Positions 1,333-44,953 of a stretch of 64,000 bases of DNA are shown here, piece by piece. Below the pieces are notes generated by a model that was not told the origin of the DNA, ran no database searches, and saw only the letters and a list, made by a program, of their open reading frames with translations. The position numbers and the translations under genes are program-made. Within the stretch, counting starts at the first letter, position 1, and the number at the start of each line of letters is the position of its first letter. The stretch comes from Anolis carolinensis (lineage: Eukaryota): NCBI RefSeq assembly GCF_035594765.1, contig NC_085843.1, positions 276,621,971 through 276,685,970 on the forward strand, read 5' to 3'.

Positions 1333-1499
1333 TGCCATAAAAATCTTTTGGACTTTCTCCAGCTTGAAATAATGTGTTTGATTGCTCTCCTGATTGTATT
1401 TCTCCAATAACTTTTGTGCTTCTTCTCTGTAATTTTCTGCATCTTCTAGGACTGTTATTCTCACTGGGCAGTCCTTGCATTCGTATAGTTGTGACGGAA
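1333..1499 (-). CDS. HRG: HRG-like exon 4 (VPSQLYECKDCPVRITVL...QKIFMA)
   Basis: Acceptor cttttcacag, donor gtaagt; 167 nt, same size as exon 4 of AHSG and FETUB. Confidence 0.9.
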
Positions 1500-4400
1500 C
1501 TGTGAAAAGCGTACAGTTATCAACATTTTCACCCCACTGGCTTGAAGGCACACAAAAAGGTAGAAGCTTGCTGGTTTATATACAAATAAACAAGAGCAAG
1601 AACCAATGTGTTCAGACTTTGGCTGTGTTTCAAAGATTTCAACCCAAAATGTTAAAAATTCTAAAGTAGTAGTTATAACAGCAATCCAGCATTGCCCTTT
1701 ATACAATAATGTTCCAGGTTGCCTATTTTCATTTACATTGTTTAATCCATTTGATAGTTTGTTCCAGAATTCACCTCGTAAGCAGCATAAGCCTTCCCAA
1801 ATGGCAATTTTCATGTAGCTGGATGGTGGTGGTAGTGCATCATCTATGATGTGTCCAGATGTTCTCTTATAGATTGATATACTGCAAGGGGCATTGGAAG
1901 GGACTTCTAGGGGTCTTTGGAAAATAGCTGGATGTTTTCCTGCTGATTCCCTAATTCTCCAAGAACAGAAGAATCTTTGTGTGATTGGAGGAAATGCACT
2001 GCTTGCAAAGTGGGCTTTTGGAACAGAAGGAATTTGGCCATTGAGCAGTTGGAAAAGAATTACAACCTCTGCAGCCACCCAAAAAGTGATTTGCTATAGT
2101 GTAAATCTGATTTATTCTAATTCATACATCAATAGGATGCCAGCCTCAATTTACACTATCAACCACAGTGAGCTTTGGCAATACCTAGAGATAACAGGTA
2201 TTCTTTGATGATTTTATGTTATTCTAAACTCTTTGCATATAACTGAAACACCATTGTGATCTCGCATAAAAAGCAGGGTTATTGTAATTGACTTATGGCA
2301 TAGGTTGATGGTTAGGATTAAGGCAGCATATCTGGGAATGATGAGAGGTATAGTCCAGAGCATCTAAAGACCATTGAGTTTGAGAAGATTTGTTGACAAA
2401 CCATGTCAACATTTTAAAAAGTGATGGCTGAAGCTCTGGAGATCATCAAAGAAGGTGTTGGCTATACCTGGGCTCATGGTGCAGTTGTATCCATACAGTT
2501 TGTCTCTCTTGTATAATTCGTTTATATGCACAACAGCTTTACATTGTCCGAACTCCTAGAGAAGACAAAAGAAGAAGAACCTGTCTTTTAAACTATGCAC
2601 AAAGAAATACGTTCCAGGAGGAAGGAAAACTGGCATTGAAGCTCATAATGTCATGTGCGTTCCGCTGCCATGTTGTCCTCCACTGTTGATAGACAATCCC
2701 ATCACTAGCTGCAATATTCCCATCACCTATTTATCTGCTTTTGTGATGGCATGTTAATAGTAGCATGATGTCAGGGGATACTGATGATACCCAGTTCTGT
2801 ATCGCTTTTATAAGTGATGCCAACAAGGGCTAACATAGTTGTCCGGATGCAGTAAAGGACTGGATGCATATGAATAAACTGACGCTTAATGCAGACAAGA
2901 TGGAAGAGCTAGGACTGGGATCATAACCTATTCTGAATGAGGTTGTGCTCTCTCTGAAAGATCAGGTCATAGCTTGGACCCAGCATTAGCTGGGAAAATG
3001 GTTCCAACTTTGAGTGGTGTGCCAGCTGGACCCTTTCCTGGGGAGGGCAGATGTGGACACCATGTTGCTCTGGAATTGAAAGTCTTGCAGGCCACATAAA
3101 ATGACATGGCAGGATGGATTTGGCCTGTGGGCCTTGCACTTGACACCTATGCCATTTGACATTGGTCTTCCAAGAACTGCATTAGTTTCCAGTTTGCTTC
3201 TGAGCTCAATTCAAAGTGCTGATGTTGACCTAGAATGGTCTAAATGAATTGGGGCCGAGATATCTGGGTCTGCCATGTGAGCCTGGTACCAGCAATTTGA
3301 CATCTTTAATGGAGGCCCTGTTGTGTGTCCCAGCAACACCTTGTAAAGTTTGATCGACATGTTCACATGACAGCGCTTTCTTACTTGCACTTCAACTGTG
3401 GGAATCCCTCTCCAAGGAAATTAGGCTGGACCCATTTCTCTTAAGTTTCCAGTGGATTGTTCCTTGACTGCTTTTAGGAGTTTTTAAAGTGTATTTTAAT
3501 GTGCTTTTGTGTTTTTATTATTTTAATTGGTTTATATTTGTTTAAAGAAGTAATAAAATAAACAAATGATATAGGTAAAGGTAAGTAAAGGTTTTCCCCT
3601 GACATTAAGTCCAGTCGTGTCCGACTGTGGGGGTTGGTGCTCATCTCAATTTCTAAGCCAAAGAGCCGGCGTTGTCCGTAGACACCTCCAAGTTCATGTG
3701 GCCACTGGCATGACTGCATGGAGCGCCATTACCTTCCCTCCAGAGCGGTACCTATTGATCTACTCACATTGGCATGCTTTTGAACTTCTAGGTTGGTAGA
3801 AGATGGGGCTAACAGCAGCGCTCACTCCACTCTCTGGATTCGAACCTGCAACCTTTTGGTCTGCAAGTTCAGCAACTATTATCTATATCATTTGTTTAGA
3901 TAATGCCAAATCTCTATACAATATTTTACCTAGTTCTACTCAAATACTGAAATGATAGTGTGAAATAGCACCTGTGAATTTTCGATTAAATGCTGCAGAC
4001 ACAATTTATATTCTGTGTGCATTCAGACGGGTTAAAATGACCAGAGAGTCCCAGAGTTTGTACTTGGTCTTTCTTATTTTATTTTGTTAATCTATACCCA
4101 TTTTGTTTATTCTCAGAATATTTTTTGTCAGCCCTTGGTACAATCAGAAGTTCCCAAAGTCAGTTTATTGTAACTTGGGGAACATTCAGACTGATTAAAA
4201 AGTCTTAAATTCTATTCCTATTTTTTCCAATTTGTCCTTAGCATAAAAAGAACAGGGACAAAATCTAGATGCACCTAATGTTGTACGTTAGTTCTGAAAC
4301 ATGAACTGGTTCAACAGAAAATTAGAAACATTGGTAAGAATTGAGCACACCAAAAATATGGCTAAAATTCCTCTTCAGGGCCTACAACACATATGTTTAT

Positions 4401-7400
4401 TGTGATGGAGCTACATTGCAGACACAGTGTGCAACTATGCTAGTGGATTGCAATGATAGACCACAGAGTCCTGTGCAAAATGACCTGTAGTGTGTTGCAA
4501 CGTGCTGCATATCAGGACACATTGTGCAATGGGACACAGTGTACATTGGAACAATTTGCCAGTGGTTATACTACTTGCTCCACTTACGCAATGGTCCCAG
4601 TTGCACAGCTTTGCCTCTGCTCCCATCCTGAGAATAAAAACATTGCACAAACGGCTCACTTCAATTTTACATTACTGCATATTGGTTTATGGGGATGTAA
4701 CTTCCCAACAGTATCTCCATCAACATTTGTTAAGTTCAAAGTATTGCAAGACTTTGAAATTCTATTTTACAGATCTGAACTCATTTTTTTCCTAATCCTC
4801 ATAGTATACACATGCATTTTTAAGAGGCATGATTCACTCAGGAGTAAGTGAATATACAAGTGCATTGGCTGCCTATAGCTAAGTCCACCTCCACATGTGA
4901 ATGGTGTGAATGGAAAAAAGACACCCTGCACGCCTTCAGTTCTGCAGCAATTTGACAAGTTGCCAACAGAGCCGGCCCTAGGTAATTTTCAAGTGTAGGC
5001 GAACATAATTTTGGCGCCCCCCCCAAACCAATCACTGAAAAATAAAAGCATTGGATAAGCGAAAATGTTGGATAATAAGGAGGGATTAAGGAAAAGCCTA
5101 TTAAACATCAAATTACATTAAGATTTTACAAATTAAGCACCAAAACATCATGTTTTACAAGAAATCAACAGAAAAAGCAGTCTCAACTGCGCCCCCGTAT
5201 GTTTTGCGCCCCAAGCGACCGCTTAATTTGCCTCATTGTTGGACCGGCTCTGGTTGCCAACACCCACCGCTAACGTCCTTGTTAAGGCAAGCAAGGCCCC
5301 AGATTAAGAAGAGTCCTTGAGGCACTGTGGACCAGACAATTAGAAATCATGCTTTCTTAATGGTGAGATGCATACAAAACAAACAACTGGAGAGAGAGCC
5401 CTTGGGATCTTGCAAAAGCTGCTTGTCTCAACATGTCCTGTGACTGGGAAAATGTTGCAGACACAGATATAGGATGGGTGATGTCTGGCTTGAAAACAGT
5501 CCACATGAAAGGAATCTAGGAGTCATAGTAGACTATAAGCGGGATGTGAGTCAAGTGTGTGATGCAGCAGCTGAAAAATCCAATGCAATTTTAGGCTGTC
5601 TATTGTCAAAGCCTCCGGTGGCTCAGTGTGTTAAAGTGCTGAGCTGCTGAACTTGCAGACCGAAAGGTCCCAGGTTCAAATCTGAGGAGCGGAGTGAGTG
5701 CCCACTGTTGGCTCCAGCTTTTGCCAACCTAGCAGTTTGAAAACATGCAAATGTGAGTAGATCAATAGGTACCACTCCGGCGGGAAGGTAACGGTGTTCC
5801 ATGCAGTCATGCCGGCCACATGACCTTGGAGGTGTCTACGGACAATGCTGGCTCTTCGGCTTAGAAATGGAGATGAGCACCAACCCCCGGAGTCGGACAT
5901 GACTGGACTTAACATCAGGGAAAACCTTTACCTTTACTATTGTCAAAGTCAGGGGAAGTCATGGTCCCACTCTCTTCTGCTTTGGTCAGACCTCACCCAG
6001 AATAACCCTGTGTCCACTTCTGCATACCAAAATTCAAGAAGCTTATTGACAAGCTAGAATATGTTCAGAGAAGGGCTACCAAATGATCAAATACTTGGAG
6101 ACATGATAGCCATGTTTAATATTTGAAAGGATGTCACACTGAGGAGAGGGCAAGCTTGTTTTCTGCTGCTTTGGAGACTGTGACACAAACCAATGGATTC
6201 AAATTGCAAGAAAAGAGATTCCACCTAAACATTAGGAAAAATTTTCTGATGCTAAGAACTGTTTGGCAGTGGAATATGCTGCCTTAGAGTCCAGTGAAGT
6301 CTTACTTTCTGGAGTTATTAAAGCAGAGTTTGGATGGCCATCTATCCAGGGTGCTTTGATGGTTGTCTTCCTGCATGGCAGAAGGGGGTTGGATTATATG
6401 GTCCTGGGGAGGTCTCTTCCAAATCTCTGGTTTTATGATCATTTCCCATGCCCCCAACTGCAATGCCTTGGAAACCTTTTGATTGAAACACTGCTTAACT
6501 TAAGAAGTCAGTTCTTGAGTTCACATTTGGTCATTTACATCAATAACTATGAATCCCAAAAATTACAATATTGTAAATACAGTTTATGGTCTTGTAAATA
6601 TTGAGCAGGATGGTGGTGTACATTTCAAAAGTAACAAATAATGAATGGGATATACATTAATTTATTCTCCAAATGAGAAATATTTTATAGTTATTTTCAT
6701 AAGTTACTTTCAAAGGGCATTTTAGATTATATCTTTTTTTGCAATTGTAACAATATTTGTTGTTTGTTTTTATAGTTCCCCGTTTTGAGGCATTTGTAAT
6801 TTTTAAAAACAAAAAGAATACTGAGTAACACAGTGGGTAATAAAATAACTGACTCTTTAAAACTTGGTAAGGAATACTAACAGCAAATTATAGTAGCCTC
6901 TCAAGCAAGAGTCAAAGAAAAAATAATTTAAATAAAAATTAAAATACATGTATAATACAGTAAAACATTACATTACATTTAATTAGGTTAAATTTGTCTT
7001 TATTTGCTTTTAATTACTATATTCCAATGTTAATACCATGTCAATACAGATTTTATGGTATAATATAGTATGGGTATTAATTAGGCTTATTTTTTAATAG
7101 TAATGCTCAAGCCACAAGAACGTACATTTGTCTGAAATCTCCCATTTCCCATGGGTTACAGTTAAGTGAGAGTTTCCTATACTTTGAAAATGCTATGATG
7201 ATTCATAGGAACAAGGAAGTCTTTAAAAGTATTTTCTCAAGTCCTGAAAAAGTAAGATGAAAAGAGCATGCAATAGGTTGGGATGGGAGTTATGGGGCCC
7301 TCCATATGTTGTTGGACTGCATAGCCAGGATGCAGAAGAATGCTGAAGATGCAGTCCATCAATGCCTGGGGGACACTATATGTAAATAGCCGATGTGATC

Positions 7401-10400
7401 ACTCATTGCTATAATCTTGATGTCAAATTGAACATGATGTTTGCTGCATCAAATGTGTCTAGACACTTATTGTGAAAGCTACTTGGAGAACATCAATGGG
7501 AGCCCCAGAAACACAGTTACTTGCCGTGCTGCGGTAGAAACGCCGCTCTCCACAAGACGACCAGTGTTTCCCAGACACTACAGGGCATTCGGTATCCAGC
7601 ACATCAAGAGTCAAGTAGACCATGGATGCATTTTCCTTAAAGGGAAACGGGGAGAAGAAAATACAACAGGTTCACTCATGCTTCCACAGGCATTTGAGAT
7701 GAAGAAAGAGACATATTCAAATAAATAACGCACACATCAAGGCTGAGAGACATTTTGGGGGTTTCCAAATGTATTTACGATTCGGTTTTGTTAGAAATCA
7801 AACACCGGAAACTCGTGGAGACTTCTGTGAGATGAGATATAGAAGGGCTAACATTCAATGGTCCCAGGTTCAAATCCCGGGAGCGGAATGAGCGCCCACT
7901 GTTAGCCCCAGCTTCTGCCAACCTAGCAGTTCGAAAACATGCAAATGTGAGTAGATCAATAGGTACCGCTCTGGCAGGAAGGTAACGGTGCTCCATGCAG
8001 TCATGGAGCACCTCCATGACCTTGGAGGTGTCTATGGACAACGCTGGCTCTTCGGCTTAGAAATGGAGATGAGCACCAACCCCCAGAGTCGGACACAACT
8101 GGACTTAACGTCAGGGGAAAACTTTTACCTTAACATTCAATGAAGATTTATAGCACTAACAGCACTCTGCTTGGCCATGGACACTCACTGGGTGATCTTG
8201 GGCAAGCCATACTCTCCCAGTCTCCAAGGAAGGCAATGGCATTTTCCCCTTGAACAATCTTGCCAAGAAAACTCCATGATAGCCTCACTTTAGGATCACC
8301 ATAAATTGGAAATAACATGAAGTCAATACTAACAAAAACAATGCTACCTAGCCTTCTCCATTTTGGGTGCTCCATTGTCCTTCACGTCCTTCTAGTTTCT
8401 CCTCCTTACAATGGTCACTAAGCATGTGTAGTCCCTTCTACTGTTTTGGGTCATTCCTTCAATAAGATTTTTTTAGATGGGAAAGGGAGTGTACTTCTGA
8501 AATATCTGGATGGCCTCAAGCATTTTAATACATTCTTCATGTTGGACCAAAATGTAACCTTATTCCTTAGCAAGTCATCAGACTATGAAATATCTGAGGG
8601 CATTATAACTAATAGTAAACGTCATAGGAAGCCTACATTTCAATAATAATTTGTTTTAAGACTGTGTTCCTCACAGTAAAATCCCTGTATCAGATCTGGT
8701 GAACATGTGAGCTTCTAGATGGTTTTGGACTCCATTTCCCATCAGCTCTAGACAACATGTTACATTGCCAGACTTGTTGGGATATACAGTCCTATAACAT
8801 CTGGAGGGTCACAAATTTCAGTGACAATGATAATATTTATTTAGTTAATCTATTTTTAAAATAAACAAATGTTTAGGTAAATGTAAAGGTTTTCCCCTGA
8901 CATTAAGTCCAGTCATGACTGACTCTGGGGGTTAGTGCTCATCTCCATTTCTAAGCCGAAGAGCCGGCGTTGTCCGTAGACACCTCCAAGGTCATGTGGC
9001 CGGCATGACTGCATGGAGCGCCGTTACCTTCCCGCTGGAGCGGTACCTATTGATCTACTCACATTGGCATGTTTTCGAACTGCTAGGTTGGCAGGAGCTG
9101 GGGCTAACAGCGGGTGCTCACTCTGGTCCCGGGATTTGAACCTGCGACCTTTCAGTCTGCAAGTTCAGCAGCTCAGTGCTTCAACACTCTTCACCACTGG
9201 GGCTCCAAACAAATGTTTATAAGCTGCTTTTTTGGAGTCACAGACTCAAGGTAGCTTACAAAGATGAAAATTGATAATGCTTACAAATCTACATCATATA
9301 CAATTAAATATATAATCAAACTATCCACAAAATAGAAACCAGTAAAAAGCAAACCATTAAAAAGTACAACAAATGCTAATTGGTTATCCCATGTCTGAAA
9401 ATCCAGAATGCTTCAGAATCTAAAATAGTCCACAGTGGTGGCCGAGAGAGTGACACTTTTGCCTCCTGATGGTTCAGTGTACACAAACTTTGTTTTGTGC
9501 ACATAATTGTTATAAATAGTTTGTATAAAATACTCTCAGGCTGTATGTATAAGGTGCATATGAAACAGAAATGAATTTTGTGGTTAGACTTGGGCCCCAG
9601 CTCATCAGGTGTGTGCAAAAAATTCCAGATAAAAAATAATCTGGTCCTAAGCATTTCAGATAAGGCATTCTCCATGTGTATAAACAACGCAGTGCATGGA
9701 AGGCCTTTCCCTCTAAGTAGTGAACTTTCCAAGGCCTGATGAAACACAAAGGCTTTTACCAGCTTTAGGAATGAGGATAAGGAGGGCTCGAATCTAACCT
9801 TTTTAGGAAGGACCTCCCAGAGCCTGAGCAACCATCAAGAAGGCCCTCTCCTGTGTTTCCACCAGACATAACTGTGAAGGTGGTGGGATCGAGAGGAGAA
9901 ACTCTCACAACAAGAGCAGGACTAAAATGCAGTCTTTTAGAAAACCTGACTGAGCAGTATAGGGATTTGTAGCTCATAACCAGGTCTTTGAATTCTGCTC
10001 AGTAACGAAACAGTAGCCAGTTGGGCTGTAGCAAGAAGAGTTGGTTGCTCCCTTGAAGTATGATATAAATATTTATGCGTAACCCCAGTGGTGAAGTGTG
10101 TTAAAGCACTGAGCTGCTGAACTTGCAGACCGAAAGGTCCCAGGTTCAAATCCCGGGAGCGGAGTGAGCGCCCGATATTAGCTCCAGCTCCTGCCAACCT
10201 AGCTGTTCGAAAACATGCAAATGTGAGTAGATCAATAGGTCTGGCAGGAAGGTAACGGCGTTCCATGCAGTCATGCCAGTCACATGACCTTGGAGGTGTC
10301 TACGGACAATGCCAGCTCTTCGGCTTAGAAATGGAGATGAGCACCAGCCTCCAGAGTCAGACATGACTGGACTTCAGGGGAAAACCTTTACCTTACTTAA

Positions 10401-11050
10401 ACATTTATGCACATAGTTGAAATCTCTCCATAGGATGAATATTGAGTTTTGTGGAAGTGGTTCAATAAGGAATTTTTGGCTATATCTGCACCGAGGAATT
10501 ATAGCAGTAAACTTCCATTATTGAAAGTGATGGAAAGGAGATTTGGAGATTGTGAGATATCTCTATCAGAGAGGTTCGCATAGGAAGGAACTATGGCAGT
10601 TCAAGTTATGTCTAACTCAGGCATGGGCAAACTTGGGCCCTTCAGGTGTTTTGGACTTCAACTCCCACAATTCGGCTGTTAGGAATTATGAGAGTTGAAG
10701 TCCAAAACACCTGGAGGGCCAAAGTTTGCCCATGCCTGATCTAACTGCTATAATTCTGCAGTGCTGATGGTCTCTTTGTTAAGACAATGGTTCACTCTTG
10801 GAATATGAACACACACTCTTGAATCAGTCCCAGGGATACTACTTACCAAATGTTGCACATGAGCATCCGCAACCCGCAAGAGAGTGAAGATGTAGCCATG
10901 CCTGCGATGCTTGTTGATCAAGTCAAGAGCCACTCCTGCATCTTTTTCTATCTGAGCGTCATTGCAATCTGCAGGTGCTAAGGCAGGTGGGCTCTCAGTG
11001 TGACAGCAGATGAGACCCACAACAAACACTGCCACGGTTAGCAGCTCCAT
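1333..11050 (-). CDS. HRG: Histidine-rich glycoprotein-like gene, exons 1-4 (partial; continues past the left edge)
   Basis: Exons (minus): 11050-10847, 7635-7525, 2555-2468, 1499-1333. ALDLINKHRRHGYIFTLLRVADAH resembles the mammalian HRG N-terminus (ALDLINKRRRDGYLFQLLRIADAH); lies downstream of AHSG-FETUB on the same strand, as HRG does. Confidence 0.82.
2468..2555 (-). CDS. HRG: HRG-like exon 3 (EFGQCKAVVHINELYKRDKLYGYNCTMSP)
   Basis: Acceptor tcttctctag, donor CAG|gtatag; 88 nt. Confidence 0.9.
2780..3470 (+). mobile_element. Degenerate L2 LINE 3' fragment
   Basis: WM..NKL.LN.DK and HWLP-like RT C-terminal remnants (gactggatgcatatgaataaactgacgcttaatgcagacaag; ctcaattcaaagtgctg). Confidence 0.6.
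3573..3875 (-). mobile_element. Sauria SINE
   Basis: (ACCTTT)n tail and conserved body shared with >10 copies in the window. Confidence 0.85.
4967..5252. mobile_element. hAT-type MITE carrying a piece of a Tigger/pogo-like MITE
   Basis: TIR CAGAGCCGG...CCGGCTCTG; perfect 8-bp TSD gttgccaa at 4959-4966 and 5253-5260. Confidence 0.85.
5420..6440 (+). mobile_element. CR1 LINE 3' fragment interrupted by a Sauria SINE
   Basis: CR1 RT-end remnants (DLGV.VD, tgtgatgcagcagctgaaaa, ccacctaaacattaggaa) and 3' ggtctcttccaa end. Confidence 0.8.
5612..5936 (+). mobile_element. Sauria SINE, full length
   Basis: tRNA-like head (A box TGGCTCAGTG, B box GGTTCAAATC), ACCTTT tail, 12-bp TSD ctattgtcaaag. Confidence 0.92.
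7525..7635 (-). CDS. HRG: HRG-like exon 2 (ENASMVYLTLDVLDTECPVVSGKHWSSCGERRFYRST)
   Basis: Acceptor ttccctttaag; 111 nt if the donor is ACG|GCAAGT (GC-AG intron). Confidence 0.85.
7861..8130 (+). mobile_element. Sauria SINE, 5'-truncated
   Basis: 12-bp TSD taacattcaatg at 7849-7860 and 8131-8142. Confidence 0.9.
8876..9206 (-). mobile_element. Sauria SINE, full length
   Basis: 13-bp TSD aaacaaatgttta. Confidence 0.92.
9380..9675. mobile_element. Tigger-like non-autonomous DNA transposon (related copy at 13137-13434)
   Basis: Shared internal sequence with the TA-flanked CAGGTTGA...AACCTG element at 13137. Confidence 0.55.
9680..10050 (-). mobile_element. Degenerate L2 LINE 3' fragment
   Basis: Reverse complement of L2 RT C-terminus and 3' region (…cagaattcaaagacctggttatgagctacaaatccct…). 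Confidence 0.55.
10080..10397 (+). mobile_element. Sauria SINE
   Basis: Head, body and tail present; approximate TSD taaayatttatgc. Confidence 0.9.
10618..10738. mobile_element. hAT (Charlie-like) MITE, CAGGCATGGGCAAACT family
   Basis: TIRs and 8-bp TSD gtctaact/atctaact. Confidence 0.85.
10847..11050 (-). CDS. HRG: HRG-like exon 1 (MELLTVAVFV...ADAHVQHL)
   Basis: ATG at 11050 starts a signal peptide; donor TTG|gtaagt; 204 nt. Confidence 0.9.
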
Positions 11051-19689: not shown

Positions 19690-20406
19690 TTACTCAGTTT
19701 GGGATTGTGTGCCTCCAGGGGGTGTTTTTACTACAGGCCTTTGAGGCAACTCAAGACCAATGATGTTTTCTTTGCTCTCTCCTGGGCAGGTGGGTGATCC
19801 AGAAAACCCAGGTGGGTAGGGAGGAATATTTGAGCCCATGGGCTTGGTCAACCCTGGCCGCCCTGCTGGTTTCTGTGGTGGATGGCTGCCTTCCTCAGGA
19901 TGGCTGGGACTACCTGGAAGCTGCGACTTGGGCAGTTGTGGGGGCTGCTGCACTTGAGGAGGGACAGGTTTCCCATCCAGTGACTCTGCTCCAGTTTCAG
20001 GCAAGGAGTGAAGAGACACATGCTCATTTGAAGGGGGAAGGATTACCACATGCCCTACTGTTTTCAGATGGTCCTTGTCACAAGAGAGATCTTGATGATC
20101 CCGTGAATGATCGCTATGGTGCCTTCCGTGATCACCGTGATGGTGTGGGTGGTCATCCCTATCAGGGTGACGTTGACCATCCCTATCAGGGTGACGTTGG
20201 CCATCCCTATCAGGGTGGTGGTGGCCATCCCTATCACGGTGGCGGTGGCCATGATCGCGATCCTGAGAGTGACCATCTCCATGACGGTGATGATCTCCCT
20301 TCTTTCTGCCGTGGTCATGATGGCCATCTTCATGGCTTTCGCGATCTGCATGGTGTCCATCTCTGCCCGGTTGTAGTCCAGATTGTTGTTCACCACCTTC
20401 TTGTGC
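19690..20406 (-). CDS. FETUB: FETUB exon 7: His/Asp/Arg-rich repeat region followed by Pro-rich tail and terminal CPG
   Basis: Acceptor gctattag; 238 aa open frame AQEGGEQQ...GHHADRESHEDGHHDH...HPDRDGQRHPDRD...SCDKD...TCPGESK...QTE*; contiguous with ORF 19690-20049. Confidence 0.9.
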   Translation of the reverse strand, partial: AQEGGEQQSGLQPGRDGHHADRESHEDGHHDHGRKKGDHHRHGDGHSQDRDHGHRHRDRDGHHHPDRDGQRHPDRDGQRHPDRDDHPHHHGDHGRHHSDHSRDHQDLSCDKDHLKTVGHVVILPPSNEHVSLHSLPETGAESLDGKPVPPQVQQPPQLPKSQLPGSPSHPEEGSHPPQKPAGRPGLTKPMGSNIPPYPPGFSGSPTCPGESKENIIGLELPQRPVVKTPPGGTQSQTE

Positions 20407-23400
20407 CTAATAGCATCATACATAAGAAAGATCTGCTCAGTGTCTGTTATTAAGAGAGTGCCCTTCTGTGTATGGATCAAGACGCAATGGATGAGATAAA
20501 ATTGGGCATATTTCTTTGCTTGGAAGTCTGTTCAGTGCTAGTAGAATACTGTATGTAGCATGCATTATGACAACTGGCTTTTAATGACTCAGAAATGCAG
20601 TCGCCTGGGTCACCATGAAAGTGGAAAAGCCTTGAATAAAAATGCACAATTTCTTTACTTAGGAGAACAGCCCCCTAGGAATCTTTAGGTCCTCCATTGT
20701 GACTCTTCTGATGGAAGTTGACCATAGAATCATGCTGGAGAACTTAGCATTTGGTAGAGATTTGTAGGTCCTTCAGAGTGATTCTAGAGTTAATTTTCAC
20801 TAGAAGAGTCATTCTGGAGAACTTAAAGATTCCTAGGGAGATGTCTTCTCTGGTAAATAAGAGGAGATCATTACCATTTTTCCCATTTTTGTGTGTGTCC
20901 TCCATCTCTAACACCCATGAAAGCAGGGTGCCTTCTCTACTCCACTGCCAAATAGAAGGTTGTGAGAGGGCGATACATAATTACAGTCAACTCTTCACAT
21001 TCACTGAGGTTAGGGGCTCAGGACCCTTGTGAAAGTGGAAAACTGCAGAAGCACCGTTCTATGGTCAACTTCCACTGGAATGTGATCATAGAATTGTACT
21101 GGAGAACCTAAAGATTCCTACAAAAGTGTTATCTGGAGAAATCTTTAGGTTGTCCACAATGTGTGGAGGAAGTTGACCATAAAATCACACTGGAGGACTT
21201 AGAAATTCCTAAAGAGAACATTTACAATCAAATATGTTGAACAACTGAATCCAAAAAAGTCACATTGCAAATGTGAGGGGATGACTGTGATTTTTATACA
21301 TATTTCAGAAGCTAATCTAATGCCTGCTGCTGATAAACAATGTGATAATGTTCAGATTTTGTCAACGTTGCCTTTTTTGGTCAAGATCCCAGAATCCTTT
21401 GGGCAATTTGCTTACTTGTTAGGGGATTCTGGGAATAATAGTCTATAAGAAAATTGTTTTTTCCAAGTCCTATTCATCTTTATATTCTATGGTTCATTAC
21501 TGTTGCTGTTATTGTCCGACAACAATGTGTAATTGAGCACCATACCTGTGGATGGAAGAGGGTGCACGTTACAGTGATAAATTTCCGGTTTTCTATCCGA
21601 CTTTCCACCACAGAGCCTTTGCACAGACCTGTTACCTAGGAAAAAATATATAGATATATATTCTCTATCAGCAGGTCATTCCAACAAAAAAAATTCACAT
21701 ATCAGTTTTGAATATCTAAAACCTGAAATAGTGTATGATATATTTGAGCTCGGTGTTGCAGCAATGGATACACTCGCACATTCACACTAGCCTTCAGACA
21801 CATCCATAGATGTGACTTAAACTTATTCAGCTTATTTGTTCTCCGCTAGTAACCCTAGAGATTGAGGGGGGGGGGGGACCGAGGCCAGAGAAATGTTCAG
21901 CTCCCCTGGAATTTTTTGGCAAAACCAACCTACTTGAAGGGATATACAATGGAGATATATTGCAGTGTGGTTCTGTTGCTTTGTGTTGGTTTGAGGGAGG
22001 GAGGAATGGTTCAAAGTGGCAACTTTCTATAAAGTTACATTTTTCTGTGAGGTAATGCAAGATGAATTAGCACTTACTGCAGTTTTTGAAGGGAGGAGTG
22101 GGCACTTGGAGATGTCAGAGGCAGGTTCACTCTTGAGGCAGGATGTCTCCTGGATGGTGAATTCCACGAAATTTGAAGGACCAACGACCCACTGTGTAAA
22201 GTTAATGCATTACGAGTTAGAGGTTTTGCATTTGAATGCGAGTGCTTTGAATGCGATTTCCTGCTTCTTGGCAGGAGGTTGGACTGGATGGCCCATGAGG
22301 TCTCTTCCAACTCTACGATTCTATGATTCTATGATTCTGTGATTCCACTAGCTGCGCCCGGCCACGCGTTGCTGTGGCTAGGACTTAATTTTTCTTTTCT
22401 TTTTGTTGTATGAACGTAGGGGCATGGATGAGAGGTTGTGCTGTCAATTTTCGAGGTTGTGGGGCGTTTAGTTTAGTTGTTTTGTCCGGTGCTGTGATTC
22501 CATTACCCTTTTATATATATAGATTGTCTGGCATAGAACAAAAGCTATTTCTCATGCACCTTGACATCCTAATATCAGGTGAAAAAGAGTTCAATATATG
22601 TGTTGGAGGCATTGTCAGAATGTCGAAAAAATCCAAACAGAACATTAAAACAAAACAAAGCTTAAGATTTCAATCCAGCTGGATGTTAATGCGTGCTAAA
22701 ATGTGTCCAGAAAAGGGCAACCAAAATGGTCAATGGTCTGGAAGCCAAGTCCTATGAAGAGTAGCTTAGGGAGCTGGATATGTTCAACTTGAACAGAAGA
22801 CTGAGAGAGGACATGAAGTCCATACTTAAATATTTGAAAGGATATCATATTGAGGAAAGGACAAGCTCTAGAGCAGGCATGAGCAAACTTTGGCCCTCCA
22901 GGTGTTTTGGAATTCAACTCCCACAACTCCCTACTGACTGTTAGGAATTGTAGGAGTTGAAGTCCAACACCTGGAGAGCCGACATTTGCCCATGCCTGCT
23001 CTAGAAACTAGGATATGAAGCAGGGAAAGGAGATTCCAACTAAACATTAGGAAGAACTCCCTGATGGTTAGAGCTGTTCAACAGTGGAATATGTGTTTGG
23101 GCATCCTGCTCTGAAGGTTTTTAAACAGTGACTGGATGGCCATCTGTCAGAGCTGCTTTGATTGTGTGTTTCTACATGCCACTAGATGGTCCTTGTGGTC
23201 TCTTCCAACTCTATGATTGTGTGATCCTTATGGTGCAATTGCTTTTCATCTGGCTACAGGGACATAGCCAGCTGCTTTTGTGGCCACCTGCCCTATTATC
23301 TCCCAGGTATGGGTGGCCATGTGTGGAGAGCTTCAGTGTCTCTATGACAGATTGTGGGTGTTTTGGTTGATGCAGAAGGAAGAAGGGAGTGTTGACTTCC

Positions 23401-37755: not shown

Positions 37756-38013
37756 TTATATGTCAAAGTGTCGGTATTTTCCTGGACACTGTTGGAGATG
37801 TGGTAATGCTGGTTGGATCACTGGTGGGACCTCTGCGGCTCTTTTGACCACCGGACTTGCTTGAACCACTGGCACTTCGGCCGAGTGGGACTCGTGCGAT
37901 GCAAGCGTGTTGTTGTGGGAATGGATGAGGTCCAGGACAGAGTAGCCGGCTCCAGGGGAAGGGATCTTTTTCCCTAAATGATGCTTAGTCAGGTGGGTAT
38001 GGGAATGTCCAAC
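37756..38013 (-). CDS. AHSG: AHSG exon 7 (VGHSHTHLTKHH...CPGKYRHFDI*)
   Basis: Acceptor ttcttttccag; 85 aa then TAA at 37758-37756; typical fetuin-A C-terminal CPG(R/K)xRHF. Confidence 0.93.
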   Translation of the reverse strand, partial: VGHSHTHLTKHHLGKKIPSPGAGYSVLDLIHSHNNTLASHESHSAEVPVVQASPVVKRAAEVPPVIQPALPHLQQCPGKYRHFDI

Positions 38014-39844
38014 CTGGAAAAGAAAACCATCATGAGGCGTCTGCTTGTGTCATTGAGTCGGGTCTCTTTTAAGGTAAGGGCATAATGCTGAGGAGTCGTA
38101 GCAGTTGTAGTTTTACAAGCTTTCTCTGTCAAAGAGTGCTGGGGCCTCATCAAACTACAACTCCCAGGATTCCATAACATCGTGTCATGGCATTAATTCT
38201 ACAGTGTAGACACACCCATAATTGTGAGATGTAGCCACACTAGTTTCCCATCAATCTTTTCTAAGCTGCTGCCCTGCAAACTTGGCCATTTCCCCAGGTT
38301 TGTGAAGAGGAGGGAAAAAAACAAAGCACCACCCAGCTACCCTATTTCACAACATAATGGTCTCAACTGTGTAATAGTTGCACCCCCTTTTTGACCTCCT
38401 AAATTTGTATCTTTTTGCTTTCCTCACATAATAGTTGCAGCCATGATTCATTGCCCCAAAGTATCCAGCTTTAAGAAAATAGTTGGATGCTTTTTTGCCA
38501 ACCCCATCCCACCAAACAAAGAAAGGGCAGATTCTGCTTTTTGGGAGAGGGGATTATCATAATTGAAGCTGGATCTGCACTGTCATATAATGCAGGTTGA
38601 ACCCATACGCTGCATTATATAATATTCCCGAATGTCCCAGCTACATAGATATTGGCAGGGGGGTTGTGGGACTTGTAATCCAAAGATTTTCCTTTCCTAA
38701 GCATTGAAGTTGGAAAAAACTAAAGAATAATTGAGTTCTAACAACCTAAAGGTAAAGGTAAAGGTTTCCCCTTGACATTAAATCTAGTCGTGTCCAACTC
38801 TGGGCGTTGGTGCTCATCTCAATTTCTAAACCAAAGAGCCGGCATTGTCCATAGGCACCTACAAGTTCATGTGGCCGGCATGACTGCATGGAGCGCTGTT
38901 ACCTTCCTGTCAGAGTGGTACCTATTGATCTACTCACATTTGCATGTTTTCGAACTGCTAGGCTGGCAGAAGCTAGGGCTAACAGCAGGAGCTCAGTCCA
39001 CTCCCCAGATTTGAACCACCAACCTTTCGGTCGGCAAGTTTGGCAGCTTAGCAGTTTAAACTGCTGGGGCACCAGGGGCTCCTTTCTAACAACCCAGAAA
39101 GGACATATTGTAAAGATTAGTGCAGAATCTGGAGGGAAAATTATTTTTGGAACGCACCTCCCCATGGCCCTTACAGCGAGGTGGTGGACTTTTAGGATAG
39201 TCCAAAAATAACTTTTCTCAAGGTGATTCTCTTGCAGGGTCTGCCTTATGTATTTGAGCACCAACCATGTGGTGTCTTGTATTAGCTGTTAGATTATATA
39301 CTTTCAGACTTCAACAACAAGTTCTTATGTTTTTTTTTAAAAAAAGGCAATTCCTGAAAGTAATGTTTAGTGCTTATACCTGTTTGTCAAAGATGTCGCA
39401 AATCACTACGTTAGGGAAAATTGCGAAAAGAGCGGGACCTTCACCAGAAGGCTTTTTGAAAATGGTGGCTTTGCAGAATCCAAATTGCTGGAGAAAGAGG
39501 AGAAGTCCAAATCACAATCCAGGTGTAAGGATAAAGTACAGAAAATCTCACACTATCACCTTCCCCATAGAAAATGATCTACACTGCTATATAATCCAAT
39601 TCAAAGCAGATAATCTGGATTCCGAAAATAGATCACATGGCGGATATACACTTTAACACTCACCAGTCCTCCTATCCCAGTAATGGCCAACCTATGACAC
39701 GCGTGTCAGCACTGACACGCCTAGCCATTTTTGCTGACACGCTGTCACATGCAGATTGATTGGATGACTAATGTCTTTTGTGGCCAAATTTGGTGTGATT
39801 TGGTCTAGTGGTCTTGTTGTTTACTCCATGGGAATTATGCACAT

Positions 39845-39903
<59 letters not shown>

Positions 39904-42900
39904 AGTATATTATTACTATTATATTATTATTATATTATTCATTATTCATGACTACATTGAAACTAGAATAGAGAGAAATCAGTGTGGAAACTGCAAGAGG
40001 TACCATAGACATAATAGAGGTACATGGACATAATGGTAGTCAATAGTTTTTGATTTATTAAATACAGTTATATATTACAATTATATATTTTTGTTATTTA
40101 AACTATATATATTGTGAAATTATGGTTTTTTCTCTCTCGAAGTGACACACCACCCAAGTCATGCTTGGTTTTTTGGTGAATTTTGACACACCAAATGCAA
40201 AAGGTTGCCCATCATTGTCCTATCCAATTAAAGGCATAGGAGGCATATTTAGCAAAAAAAAAAAAAAAAGAGCCACTTTTGACCCCCAAATAATTCTGCT
40301 TTCAGTTCACTAGGATTAAAACCATGTTGCTGGCACTTACTGCATGTTCTCCTGTCATGACATGGCAATCTTTGTGCTCCTTTGCTTCTTGTTCTGTGCA
40401 GTTGGTGGCAGCAATGGCAAATTCCACAAAGGTACCAGGAGGCATGTGCTGGGAGAAAGAGAGCAGATCATACCTTATCTGTCTTTCGGACAGGAACCAT
40501 TTCAAAACTGAGCATAAAGCAGTCAAACGATGGGACAATATACACTGTTGTATGCAGCACTGGAGTGGTTGAATATAGCTGTGGTATTTGCTTCACAGTG
40601 CACCCCAGCCAGGTTGTGAATTAGCCTTATTTTGTGTTAGGATGTGGGAGTTTTCCCATCTCAGGGCCTGGGCCGTCTTCGCCAGTCCTCAGATAAAGGG
40701 AAGGACTCTCAGGGCAATCTCAAAGGCTTTTTGATACTCACAGAGTTCCTTCCTCTTGCAATCTCAAGGAGCTCGAAGTGATGGTCTGTACTATTGTAAG
40801 TATTGTACTGCGCGAGTGCAGTGTTGACTGCATTCACCACGTTAACGTCATCTAGAAGCGCCAAGGGTGCACAGTCGGGGCAAACTTTTTCAAAATCTTC
40901 TCTTGAGTCTAAGGAAGTAAAAGAGAAACACATGATTGACTCATATATATCTTTCAGCAGGTAACATTTCCAGGTAATATCTCCTGAGGATTTAGGGTAG
41001 CTAATCAATTCTTGGAATGACTTTTTCTGGTGGTGTGCAAAACAAAGAGAAGAGTGTTATATTTATTTACTTACTGCATTGTCTTGGCAATCTTCCCTCA
41101 ACAAATTCAGAGTGCTGTATCTTCACAATAAACTTTGACTCAGGTAATTTTTTTTTCATGTCAGGAGCAACTGGAGTTGCTTCTGGAGTGAGAGAATTGG
41201 CCGTCTGCAAGGACATTGCCCAGTGGACGCCCGTGTTTTGATGTTTTACCATCCTTATGGGAGGCTTCTCTCATGTCCCCGCATGGAGCTGGAGCTGATA
41301 GAAGGAGCTCATCCCCGCTCTCTCCGGGTGGGATTCGAACCTGGCAGCCTTCAGGTCAGCAACCCAGCCTTCAAGTCACAAGGCTTTTGTCCCCTAGGCC
41401 ACCGGAGGCTCCACTCAGGTAAATTGAAGTAATAGGTCTTTTCCACACTTCACAATCATAGTGCTATGGTGTCACTTAAATTGTCATAGTGCCATGCTAT
41501 GGGATCCTAGGAATGCTAGTTTCAAGAAGCACAATGAGCCCTCTACATTTGCAGATTTAACTTCTGCGGACTTGATTATTCACGGGTTTGATAAATATGT
41601 TCTCTGCAGGAATCCCTATGTCTTCCAGTATGACTATAGGAATCTCTAGATTCTCCAGCACAATTCTATGGTCAATGTCTGGCAGAAGTTGACCATAGAT
41701 TTGCTTGGAGGAAACAGATTAATAAAGAGGTGTTCTCTTTGGTTAAACGTAAGATCATTTTAAACACATTGTTTGTCCACTTTTGCACCCCTATGAAAAT
41801 GGAAGGTCTATAATTCCTTGCCGGAAAGTTCTGGTCAAACTACAAATCCCAGGATTCCATGGGATGCAGCTATGGTGGCTAAAAGAGTATCATAGTGCTC
41901 TGAGTTGATAATGTGCAAGACCAATGATGGACTAAGCCTCGTGATTTTGTGGCCGCCTGAAGTATGGGCTGCATTTAAGTCTGGCTTTCTATTCACTTCT
42001 ACTTACTGCAGTTAATCTAAAATTACAAAAGCCTTCTTACACGCCCTGTGATAGAAAGACTTGGCTTCTGGGTGTGCAGTTGATATAGGCCTTTAGTGAC
42101 CGTACTCCAATGAATACCAAACCATGGGAACGTGTGGCATTCTGTGAAAATCCCACCAGTTGGGAGAATAGTGGGCACAGCTAAGAAAACCGTCATAGAT
42201 TCATCTTAAGGGCACCATAAAGTGGAAATGACATGATGGCACTCAACAATAACAAAAGCATATCCTGGCATTAAATTGATCAGGGATGGGGACAGGGACA
42301 CAATAGGTAGCAGAAATGCTTCCCATATGATCTAAAGGAAATGGGGTTGGGGGATCAACACTGTACATTCATATTCGCAATACGCATGCCGAAATAGATA
42401 TGCAAAAAGGGGGAATTATCAAAAAAAAGGGAACTGTTCATGATAAGCATCATAAGTAAGCAGTAGATATGTACATGGTGGAAGAGCTACTTTTTAGATG
42501 TTGTAGCTTGGGGATTCTGGGATTTGTAGTCTATAAGGTGCCCTTTCCAAGTTCTAAACAAGCATAGTGAGACCATTTGTCATTCACTCTCTGTCTGTCA
42601 GCATAACTAAGCCCAAAGCAATACAATTGATTACCTGGAGATGAGTGACATTTGGTAGAGAGCACCTTATACTGTCCGTCAAGATGGAGCATTTTGACAT
42701 CGCAGTCTCCTTCCACAGCCTGGAAGTTCAAAAAATTAGAATTAAGGGGGGCAGGAATGATGAAATAAGTACCATATATACTTGCTTATAAGTTGATCCT
42801 TTGTATAAGTCAAGGGTAGGTTTTGGAGCCCAAATTATGGATTTTGATAGGACTTGTGAATAAGTCAATGGTAAACTTAGAGGCATGTCATTCTATTCTG

Positions 42901-44953
42901 AGAAAGGGATAAGAGTTATGGAACAGACTTACAGTACAGACTAAACTAAGAGTTGCAATCATATGGATATTGATGGACATTAGCTTCTGGCATTTTTACC
43001 ATTGCCTGTATTAACTAGTCAGTCCCATTAGCTCTATCATGGCAAAATGCAATACTTACATGTTCTACTTTTGCTCTTACGGAACAATTTTGAATAGGTG
43101 TTGGACTCAGCACATGGCACTTGGTTTCCGCTAAATCTAGCTCAAGCAAGTAAATTTTTCCTGTTGGCCTCTGGGAGGAAACAAAACATATTTTGTGGTC
43201 AGTGTGAAATCAGTGTAGATTGCAAGGGACTCCAGGTAAGCTAGTTCTGTGCCTCAAATCCTTGGCCCTACTTTTCATCCCATTAGCCATATCCAAAATG
43301 TTTTTATGAGGGAGACAAAAAAAAAAAACAGCCCAGAAAACTCACAGCAACCCAGTGATTCCAGCCATTAAAGCCTTCAACAAAACAACAAACAGATTAT
43401 TGGAACTGTTTGTTGTTTTCCCTCCCTCATTAATACATTTTTGATATGGCTTAGTGAACATACAACTTAAAGCCCATGCCATAGCATGCTTCCTGATCCC
43501 AGTATCCCCAGTACCCAATCTGAAAGAAGACCGAGAAATATCTGCACACCATTCTTAGTCACTTGGCATTTTTGTGGAACTTTCTTGTGGAACGTGTTCC
43601 TTTACAAAGGGCAAGGAAAGAATCACAGGATTGTAAAGTTGGAAGAGAGGAAGTGAAGTGAACGGTTAACCTTTCATGTCTACAGATTGGATTATTCACG
43701 GATTTCATTAAAATGTGATATCTAGGAATGTCTAGGTCCTCCAGCACAATTTTACAGTTAACATCTGCTGGAAGTTGAACATAAAGAGTCACACTGAAGG
43801 GAATCAAGGTCCACAAATGCCCTACCTGGGTTGTTGTACAGAGCAATACAGAATAATAAACCCAGATTACAGGAAAATAAATCAAACACTTTCTTAGAAT
43901 GAGGGTGGGAAACTCCATTTCAGGTTGAGACTATCGGACTGGAATTGCATGATTTTGTAATAAAATCTGGTGTCACCCAGAAAAATGAGCAGCAGTGAGG
44001 CTCCCCAAGATATTTGGCCACCAGAAGTAAAGCACGACATGATACATACAGAAACTGTCTGAATTGACAGCTGAGTCATTATTCAAGACTGGCAGTGGAG
44101 CAAACATGAAGTCAGCAGGCTACTTTGGGGACTGTAGGGCAGGCCATGGGGCACACTTCAAAAGGAAGGGAATTCCCAATGGTTGATCAGAAATGACCAG
44201 AGACAATGCAGGCTGCTGTGGAGGACAGAGTGATTCCATTCTGAGTTGTAGTCCAATTTTAAAGGAACTATCCAAGGTCCTGAATTCTAACTCCAAGTCA
44301 ATTCAGTACCTTGGATAACTTGTGTGTCATTCCGATCACTGACATGTTACTGAACAGAGGGATGCTATCCCTGCCCTTGAACTTCTACTGAAATGGATAT
44401 TTCAATCTACCTAATCATAGGGCTGGCCTTCATGAGCACAAAGATCTCCAAATCCAGTAGCAGGACTGGCTGCTTGCTACGTTTTGCAGTAAATAAAGGA
44501 ATTCATGTTTTTTATTTAAAGAGATTCTTTCCTGTCTGCAGTAAGGCCATTCACTATAAAAATGAATGTAAGTCACCACGGCTGTTACTTATATATTAAA
44601 ACTGGAGTTTGGACAGGTAACTTGGGGCATTCTGGGAGTGGTAGTCCACAAAAAGGGAATTGGCCTAAATTTGGAGTAAGACAAGACAGGAAATCATTTC
44701 CTAGCTTATCCCAACATTTTATTTATGTAGCACTTACCCTTGGTAAAACCTTGACGTTCTCGATTCTGCTAAGGGTATACTTATATCCATGAAGAGAGTG
44801 GGAGTTGATGTGATCCACTGCAAAGTTGGCTGCAGCTTCAGACTCGGGGTCATCACAATCGGGAAGGCTGGAGACGAGTGGAGGGAAAGGCTCAGAGGTG
44901 GCTTTGGATGCTAGGATCTGGCCCAGAAGGACCAGAGCTATCAGAGATTTCAT
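37756..44953 (-). CDS. AHSG: Alpha-2-HS-glycoprotein (fetuin-A), complete 7-exon CDS, 350 aa
   Basis: Exons (minus): 44953-44738, 43170-43060, 42719-42635, 40908-40742, 40448-40341, 39487-39380, 38013-37756. All introns are GT-AG and the exons join in frame. Signal peptide MKSLIALVLLGQ, DCDDPESEAAA, HGYKYTL, ETKCHVLSPTP, AVEGDCD, CPDC linker and C-terminal CPGKYRHFDI are fetuin-A hallmarks. Confidence 0.95.
38747..39083 (-). mobile_element. Sauria SINE, full length (AHSG intron 6)
   Basis: 11-bp TSD ttctaacaacc. Confidence 0.9.
39380..39487 (-). CDS. AHSG: AHSG exon 6 (QFGFCKATIFKKPSGEGPALFAIFPNVVICDIFDKQ)
   Basis: Acceptor ctctttctccag, donor CAG|gtataa; 108 nt. Confidence 0.93.
39678..40217. 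mobile_element. hAT MITE with internal (TA)n (AHSG intron 5)
   Basis: Perfect 8-bp TSD tcctatcc; TIR CAGTAATGGCCAACCT/AGGTTGCCCATCATTG. Confidence 0.88.
40341..40448 (-). CDS. AHSG: AHSG exon 5 (HMPPGTFVEFAIAATNCTEQEAKEHKDCHVMTGEHA)
   Basis: Acceptor tctttctcccag, donor gtaagt; 108 nt. Confidence 0.93.
40742..40908 (-). CDS. AHSG: AHSG exon 4 (DSREDFEKVCPDCAPL...EIARGRNS)
   Basis: Acceptor ttccttag, donor gtgagt; 167 nt. Confidence 0.95.
41148..41412 (-). mobile_element. tRNA-derived SINE, full length
   Basis: B box GGTTCGAATCC, poly-A tail, 10-bp TSD actcaggtaa. Confidence 0.85.
42635..42719 (-). CDS. AHSG: AHSG exon 3 (AVEGDCDVKMLHLDGQYKVLSTKCHSSP)
   Basis: Acceptor cttccag, donor gtaatc; 85 nt, ends phase 1. 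Confidence 0.95.
43060..43170 (-). CDS. AHSG: AHSG exon 2 (RPTGKIYLLELDLAETKCHVLSPTPIQNCSVRAKVEH)
   Basis: Acceptor ttcctcccag, donor gtaagt; 111 nt. Confidence 0.95.
44738..44953 (-). CDS. AHSG: AHSG coding exon 1 (MKSLIALVLL...ENVKVLPR)
   Basis: ATG at 44953; donor AGG|GTAAGT; 216 nt, phase 0. Confidence 0.95.

Follow-up and report, generated by a model that had tools for sequence, protein, structure and literature searches.

A histidine-rich tail on the fetuin-B of Anolis carolinensis, probably ancestral and later lost in birds and therian mammals

Is the histidine-rich tail of fetuin-B in the green anole an invention of lizards, or an old part of the protein that mammals have given up? 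The question arose at a locus of Anolis carolinensis within a stretch of 64,000 nucleotides (the window, to which all positions refer), where the original prediction had joined an astacin inhibitor to a His-rich domain like that of histidine-rich glycoprotein (HRG) and had implied that the domain was novel. Our analysis reverses this polarity: the short, His-poor tail that fetuin-B carries in human and mouse is likely the derived state. We consider it probable, and hold this with good confidence, that the locus encodes a spliced fetuin-B with an ancestral His-rich tail, which was kept in most reptile and amphibian copies, in several fish copies and in the echidna and was lost separately in birds and therians, and which forms a disordered binding arm, switched by zinc or acid, beside a protease-inhibiting head.

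The fetuin-B gene and its inhibitor head

The anole FETUB gene comprises seven exons with GT-AG introns throughout, and their join yields the 499 residues that had been predicted, identical to the NCBI protein P0002 ("fetuin-B [Anolis carolinensis]"). It lies between AHSG and HRG, all three on the minus strand, and the same gene order is drawn for the green anole according to the legend of Figure 9 in PMC9907073. The exons and neighbouring genes are as follows.

37756..44953, minus strand: AHSG (fetuin-A), upstream neighbour, seven exons, 350 aa
29791..30000, minus strand: FETUB exon 1, coding part, with ATG at 30000 and a GT donor; hydrophobic N-terminus (a presumed signal peptide), Cys31 and the start of the first cystatin domain (CY1)
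26112..26225, minus strand: FETUB exon 2 (CY1), with AG/GT ends
25513..25600, minus strand: FETUB exon 3 (CY1), including Cys127 at 25546-25544; the join equals P0002
24001..24167, minus strand: FETUB exon 4, with the CPDCP trunk at 24141-24127, the start of the second cystatin domain (CY2) and, as last residue, the Gln of QWVVGP
22078..22191, minus strand: FETUB exon 5, with WVVGP of CY2 hairpin I
21546..21635, minus strand: FETUB exon 6, with the end of CY2 and its last cysteine, Cys255
19690..20406, minus strand: FETUB exon 7, coding part, with the entire C-terminal region (aa 262-499) and the stop
1333..11050, minus strand: HRG, downstream neighbour, first four exons, continuing beyond the window end; 100% match to the NCBI protein "histidine-rich glycoprotein [Anolis carolinensis]"

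Two further details of the region were noted. A run of 134 N bases lies between AHSG and FETUB (34629-34762), and HRG intron 2 apparently starts with GCAAGT (7524-7519, minus strand), a GC donor if the exon end matches the NCBI protein.

Exon 7 was confirmed as a frame of 238 aa without stops (20406-19690, minus strand). Splicing was checked on assembled contigs from four of the 24 listed runs, three of which, from three studies and with the tissue unrecorded, were guessed to be RNA. The exon 6-7 junction 21546/20406, which the original prediction had singled out for checking, was seen in all three RNA-guessed runs, as was the exon 5-6 joint, and their contigs cross the entire His segment ungapped. 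The single DNA-sized run lacked the junction and its sequence continued into the intron, which together argues that exon 7 is transcribed and spliced as predicted. In runs X8 and X9 the exon 4-5 join was marked by a loose end at 22196; a single contig of X8 also had a long dissimilar end beside 19874. A wrong acceptor or an annotation artefact was considered and rejected, the only exon 6 joint among those listed leading to 20406. Downstream in-frame AG sites do exist in exon 7, e.g., at 20073 and 20022, and since nine weaker joints lie beyond those listed and contigs drop rare forms, minor FETUB isoforms are possible. Other frames over the repeat in exon 7 (229 aa on the plus strand, 155 aa on the minus strand and 89 aa on the plus strand) were taken as shadows of periodic sequence. 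The anole gene is thus real and expressed but in itself no discovery, as it was annotated before and its orthologue status is in print: PMC6400186 counts A. carolinensis (H9GD35), with QWVVGP, among the orthologues of its Table 3.

The head of the protein is that of a typical fetuin-B, a type-3 cystatin (MEROPS I25C; PMC6400186). Two tandem cystatin domains were recognized (Pfam PF00031, two stretches), the fold matched 6HPV with an E value of 5e-23, and the best matches by both sequence and fold were the solved mouse and human fetuin-B structures, at 40-44% identity in the folded part. Both motifs of the astacin inhibitor were found intact, as had been claimed, with CPDCP at aa 147-151 and QWVVGP spanning the exon 4-5 join. 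The anole protein also carries the 12 family cysteines. Cys31 and the Cys468 of the terminal CPG are present and would form a disulfide by analogy with mouse fetuin-B. In the cystatin-core tree Anolis was placed inside a squamate FETUB clade with support of 99.8/100, while the HRG rows formed a separate clade (100/100 in one tree and 99.1/100 in the other). Judging by its family, the CY1-linker-CY2 unit would act against astacin and meprin metalloproteases through the raised-elephant-trunk mechanism, with no need of the tail: in astacin-family proteases the catalytic zinc would be bound by the CPDCP aspartate, and the primed side would be filled by the CY2 hairpin. Inhibition of this family has been predicted for reptile orthologues in section 3.6 of PMC6400186, a paper which also describes the tails of non-mammalian fetuin-B as strongly deviating, from short to hundreds of residues. 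The predicted structure was confident for aa 1-260 and fell below a pLDDT of 50 at aa 266-367 and 398-449, with higher values returning for the KTVG strand and the surroundings of CPG.

The His-rich segment and its 24-nt repeat

The features of the C-terminal region, all encoded in exon 7, are the following.

20095..20358, minus strand: His-rich segment, aa 278-365, recognized by composition and predicted disordered (pLDDT below 50, aa 266-367)
20148..20252, minus strand: 24-nt tandem repeat found by Tandem Repeats Finder, four 8-aa units of the type (H/Q)xHPDRD[GD]
20080..20082, minus strand: Cys370, an extra cysteine right after the His segment, recognized in the alignment
20035..20064, minus strand: conserved strand KTVGxVxxLP, closing the His segment and serving as anchor for the alignment across species
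19780..19968, minus strand: Pro-rich stretch, aa 408-467, and the CPG tripeptide (Cys468, 19788-19780)

The first reading had counted about 27 His in about 87 residues, followed by a Pro-rich tail, and both points held. The 88 residues of aa 278-365 contain 27 His, 19 Asp, 14 Arg and 12 Gly, and 19 Pro fall within 60 aa downstream. Among 11,420 stop-free 50-aa windows, read in six frames over the 64 kb, all 84 with at least 12 His clustered at this one locus, which argues that the segment is not due to chance. Pfam contained no family covering the fetuin-B tail. The closing strand was predicted by the structure model at aa 378-384, and its Gly379 is at least 90% conserved in 64 aligned rows.

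The repeat comprises 4.4 copies with 88% matches, and the original prediction had seen in it the generator of the whole His-rich region. This did not hold up: 36 of the 88 residues belong to the repeat, and they are less dense in His (9/36, 25%) than the rest of the segment (18/52, 35%). Among seven iguanian records checked it was found in Anolis alone, and the tails of Sceloporus, Phrynosoma and Pogona, which do not have the DRDG unit, still contain 31, 28 and 24 His, respectively. Given this low density and the His-rich relatives without the unit, the repeat has made a domain that was already there longer and a little poorer in His. The segment holds other, unrelated repeats in two geckos (12 aa), Varanus (8 aa), axolotl (16 aa) and echidna (28 aa). 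The anole array would be a recent slippage expansion within a tolerant low-complexity segment, and comparable expansions would have arisen separately in those other lineages.

The suggestion that the repeat may be polymorphic in length found some backing in one Anolis species, and no variant was seen in the other. Four units were counted in A. carolinensis and in two A. sagrei records, five in a third A. sagrei record, and P0286 differs from P0287 and P0003 by exactly one 8-aa unit (504 vs 496 aa). This fits copy-number variation in A. sagrei but could be a difference between assemblies. In A. carolinensis no length variant was observed in the assembled contigs of all four runs (four samples), while run X18 had a lone substitution in the repeat at 20219, replacing His324 by Arg. 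Apart from the repeat, only two cysteines set the anoles apart. Cys127 and Cys370 co-occur solely in Anolis rows (3/64 and 2/115 aligned rows), and may form an additional disulfide by which the His block is tied at its end to CY1. The lizard-specific parts are small, namely the 8-aa repeat and the two cysteines.

Spread of the tail among vertebrates and its polarity

Homologues were collected by a search with the cystatin part, from which the best 120 of 177 matches were taken; 115 were aligned and five fused models left out. Histidines were counted after the last CY2 cysteine, and a tail was called His-rich if at least 10 His fell in a 50-aa window. The counts refer to named records reaching the terminal CPG; six unnamed rows were set aside, and rows without CPG (five lizard, three snake, and one each of turtle, bird, placental and salamander) were dropped. 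Among the matches listed, His-rich tails were found in 16/19 lizard, 9/19 snake, 5/5 turtle, 1/1 crocodile, 6/6 frog and 2/2 coelacanth records (one species), and in none of the 17 birds or 28 placentals. Further lineages were added by a profile search over cluster representatives, in which 29 proteins were given names. Tails with many His were found in echidna (P0134, 46 His), axolotl (79), caecilian (15), gar (21), tarpon (14), clingfish (13) and one paddlefish copy (29). The tails of Tasmanian devil (P0132, 6), a lungfish copy (6), electric eel (1), a zebra shark record (2) and second copies of tarpon and paddlefish (5-6) were His-poor. The last exon of five public squamate FETUB/HRG models (P0011, P0019, P0022, P0073 and P0127) is apparently in the wrong frame; these models read as text rich in Thr, Ile, Met and Val, end without CPG and hide the His block.

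There were two main observations from the alignment and the trees. Firstly, the position of the His block is constant: it follows the last cysteine of CY2 and precedes the conserved GxVxxLP strand. In birds the two flanks are present and resemble those of turtles and crocodile, and the His block alone is missing. Secondly, those His-poor squamate rows (snakes, Elgaria and Euleptes) that were placed on the tree are extra paralogues nested among His-rich ones. FETUB has been duplicated in several squamate lineages (snakes, Elgaria, gecko) and the derived copies are often without the block, while three snake species retain one His-rich copy alongside His-poor paralogues.

On this evidence it is very improbable, unless all of the annotated orthologues carry a wrong assignment, that a 24-nt repeat built an HRG-like domain, as a lizard-specific novelty, onto a fetuin-B of the mammalian kind. 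Such an origin would suit the repeat itself, which is real and confined to Anolis among the iguanians, as well as the absence of the segment from placental and bird fetuin-B among the matches listed and the place of the Anolis segment among the longer ones. It is contradicted by the relatives that are equally His-rich without the repeat, by the lower His density of the repeat compared to its flanks, by the presence of the segment at the same position in fish, amphibians, reptiles and a monotreme, from gar to echidna, and by HRG, whose His region is not alignable and whose gene adjoins intact. The original prediction had reserved the case that most vertebrate fetuin-B proteins are equally His-rich, in which the domain would be ancestral and not novel; this is what was found outside birds and therians, but not in the bird and placental records.

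Whether the tail is ancestral was evaluated by parsimony on a species tree taken as given, with one state per lineage. A His-rich ancestor required fewer steps than a His-poor one for bony fishes (4 vs 6), tetrapods (2 vs 4) and amniotes (2 vs 3), the margin for amniotes being one step. The cystatin-core tree joined echidna to therian fetuin-B (100/100) and birds to crocodile and turtles (98.8/100); deep nodes were weakly supported, squamates were wrongly joined to mammals in both trees, and reedfish and one paddlefish copy came out with HRG and are perhaps not orthologues of fetuin-B. As read from these sequences, a His-rich tail is likely the ancestral state of fetuin-B with later losses, and birds and therian mammals likely each lost the block on their own. 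The mammalian loss likely followed the monotreme split, a timing based on one monotreme and one marsupial record. A His-rich tail likely predates the split of HRG from fetuin-B. Fetuin-B has been dated to bony vertebrates and HRG to tetrapods (PMC2784779), and a His-rich tail has been called unique to HRG (PMC10388577). In the literature covered by our search, outside of which most subscription journals lie, we found no description of a His-rich fetuin-B tail or of its loss in birds and therians. A. carolinensis is included in Supplementary Figure S3 of PMC6400186, and that alignment may already show the block.

A short motif bears on the same question. HLHx[HY]EHH (with L allowed at the last place) occurs shortly before the conserved strand in 23 proteins, and its named carriers are fetuin-B of fish, coelacanth and amphibians (including P0075, P0094, P0109, P0131, P0137, P0142 and P0143). 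When the densest 60 residues were shuffled, the motif appeared in 0 of 5000 shuffles for six of seven proteins and in 21 of 5000 for the seventh. In the form HLHx[HY]EHH(H) it is a candidate metal site. None of the 34 His-rich amniote records, Anolis included, has it, and the amniote segments are therefore tied to those of fish and amphibians by position and parsimony only. This leaves some room for a repeated origin of His-richness, with convergent expansions at a site behind CY2 that permits them, and the His-enriched tails of fetuin-A in some lineages (50 His in bowfin; the snake inhibitor HSF, PMC5037476) and the His-poor shark record point the same way. We nevertheless hold repeated origin to be quite unlikely, as it costs more steps at every deep node tested, the flanks of turtles, crocodile and birds align around a clean deletion, and the anamniote motif stands at a single position in all its carriers, gar and tarpon as well as frogs.

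Possible roles of the tail and comparison with related proteins

Asp and Glu (21) outnumber Lys and Arg (16) in aa 278-365, and the computed charge of the 116-aa His cluster changes from -3.6 at pH 7.4 to +21.8 at pH 5.5; a similar swing from near neutral to strongly positive was computed for most orthologues. By analogy with HRG, whose His region binds in a pH- and zinc-dependent manner, with zinc and heparin among its ligands (PMC2537934, PMC12751054), the anole tail is likely a zinc-, metal- or polyanion-binding arm. It would loop out between Cys255 and the KTVG strand, with its far end tied by Cys468 to Cys31. Near neutral at pH 7.4, it would become strongly positive at acid pH or on binding of Zn2+, would then stick to heparan sulfate or microbial surfaces, and would thus localise the inhibitor to wounds or places of inflammation.

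The tail might instead be a disordered spacer of low complexity which is tolerated but lacks any specific ligand, its size driven by slippage and its loss without cost. The number of His in the densest cluster ranges from 12 to 78 among records, which together with the many His-poor paralogues and records argues for weak constraint, and a spacer would also account for repeated losses in birds, therians and several paralogues, for the wide range of lengths and for the unrelated 8-, 12-, 16- and 28-aa units across lineages. Inhibition by the mouse, human and carp proteins does not need the tail (PMC6789097, PMC6346019, PMC6400186). A mere spacer seems unlikely all the same, considering that it is His and not another residue which is kept, at 24-59% from fish to reptiles, that fish, coelacanth and amphibians have kept a fixed motif, and that one His-rich copy is retained beside His-poor paralogues in the three snake species.

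Decidedly unlikely, in our judgement, is an antimicrobial main job, in which the segment, clipped out or exposed when the pH is acid, permeabilises microbes as the GHH20 peptide of HRG does. The high charge at pH 5.5, the pH at which the His region of HRG kills Candida (PMC2537934), would suit such a role, as would the sensitivity of the mammalian fetuin-B tail to proteases (PMC6789097). Against it speak the excess of acidic over basic residues, the slightly negative charge at pH 7.4 compared with +4.7 and +5.4 for anole HRG, the lack of GHHPH units in the tail, and HRG itself, which is available for the job. These alternatives and those discussed above concern different steps and are not mutually exclusive.

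An ancestral His-rich tail would further explain, if true, why FETUB records of fish and amphibians are often mislabelled as "histidine-rich glycoprotein-like", "kininogen-1-like" or "antihemorrhagic factor-like". Natural pairs with and without the block (crocodile vs bird, echidna vs devil, snake paralogues) offer, together with the short conserved motif, a means of probing the function of the otherwise unexplained fetuin tail. As a tentative extension, which we regard as possible and on balance doubtful, the tail could be the original metal-binding module of the fetuin-B/HRG ancestor, with the zinc or copper core HLHx[HY]EHHH kept in fish, coelacanth and amphibians. HRG would have inherited the module and enlarged it after the duplication, fetuin-B would have shed it twice (in birds, and in therians after the monotreme split), and anoles would have added a variable-number repeat and a new Cys127-Cys370 disulfide fixing its end to CY1; its own tail would then have directed the ancestral protease inhibitor to places that are acidic or rich in zinc.

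The tail had been likened to HRG, which is characterized by its binding of Zn2+, heme and heparin and by an antimicrobial activity that depends on pH, and to kininogen domain 5. HRG is a paralogue which resembles anole fetuin-B in its two cystatin domains, its disordered His- and Pro-rich tail and its CPG end. It differs as a separate gene with CKDCP, without QWVxGP, and with GHHPH repeats in mammals, and the anole HRG tail contains 7-8 cysteines and 56-59 His, compared to two cysteines and 34 His in anole fetuin-B. The resemblance stood as regards composition but went no further: no match to [GH][HP][HP]PH (the GHHPH type) was found in the fetuin-B tail, and in BLASTP with HRG only the terminal PY/FP...CPG stretch aligned (E 0.004), not the His region. 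In HRG the His-rich region lies between two Pro-rich ones; in the anole fetuin-B sequence a Pro-rich stretch follows the His block and none precedes it. A FETUB-HRG chimera, or an exon captured from HRG, was ruled out by the trees and by this lack of an alignable His region. As anole HRG is itself His-rich, fetuin-B is not a substitute for a lost HRG. Kininogen domain 5 has repeats of the HG or HGK type and follows three cystatin domains and a kinin. Anole fetuin-B has two cystatin domains only, and its tail contains no run of two or more HG/GH dipeptides.

The three neighbours AHSG, FETUB and HRG all carry some His-rich stretch, that of the anole AHSG tail (38013-37756, minus strand) amounting to 11 His in 91 aa, with nine in the best 50 aa. 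Snake serum inhibitors (HSF, cMSF, jMSF and FETUA) likewise have a His-rich domain at the C-terminus, behind two cystatin domains (PMC5037476), and act via the N-terminus and CY1 (bioRxiv 10.64898/2026.09.24.752146), but they derive from AHSG while the anole protein is FETUB. With mammalian FETUB (PDB 6HPV, 6HT9, 6SAZ, 7AUW and 7UAI) the anole protein has in common the two cystatin domains, CPDCP, QWVVGP, the 12 family cysteines, the terminal CPG and the gene order AHSG-FETUB-HRG. It differs in the two additional cysteines, Cys127 and Cys370, and in a C-terminal region of 244 aa with 34 His, against a placental median of 130 aa and one His among the matches listed. The other fetuin-B proteins outside therians and birds (other squamates, turtles, crocodile, amphibians, coelacanth, gar, tarpon and echidna) have the same order of His block, GxVxxLP strand, Pro-rich stretch and CPG. 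Anolis, in which the HLHx[HY]EHH motif of the fish and amphibian copies is missing, has as features of its own only the 8-aa repeat unit and the Cys127/Cys370 pair.
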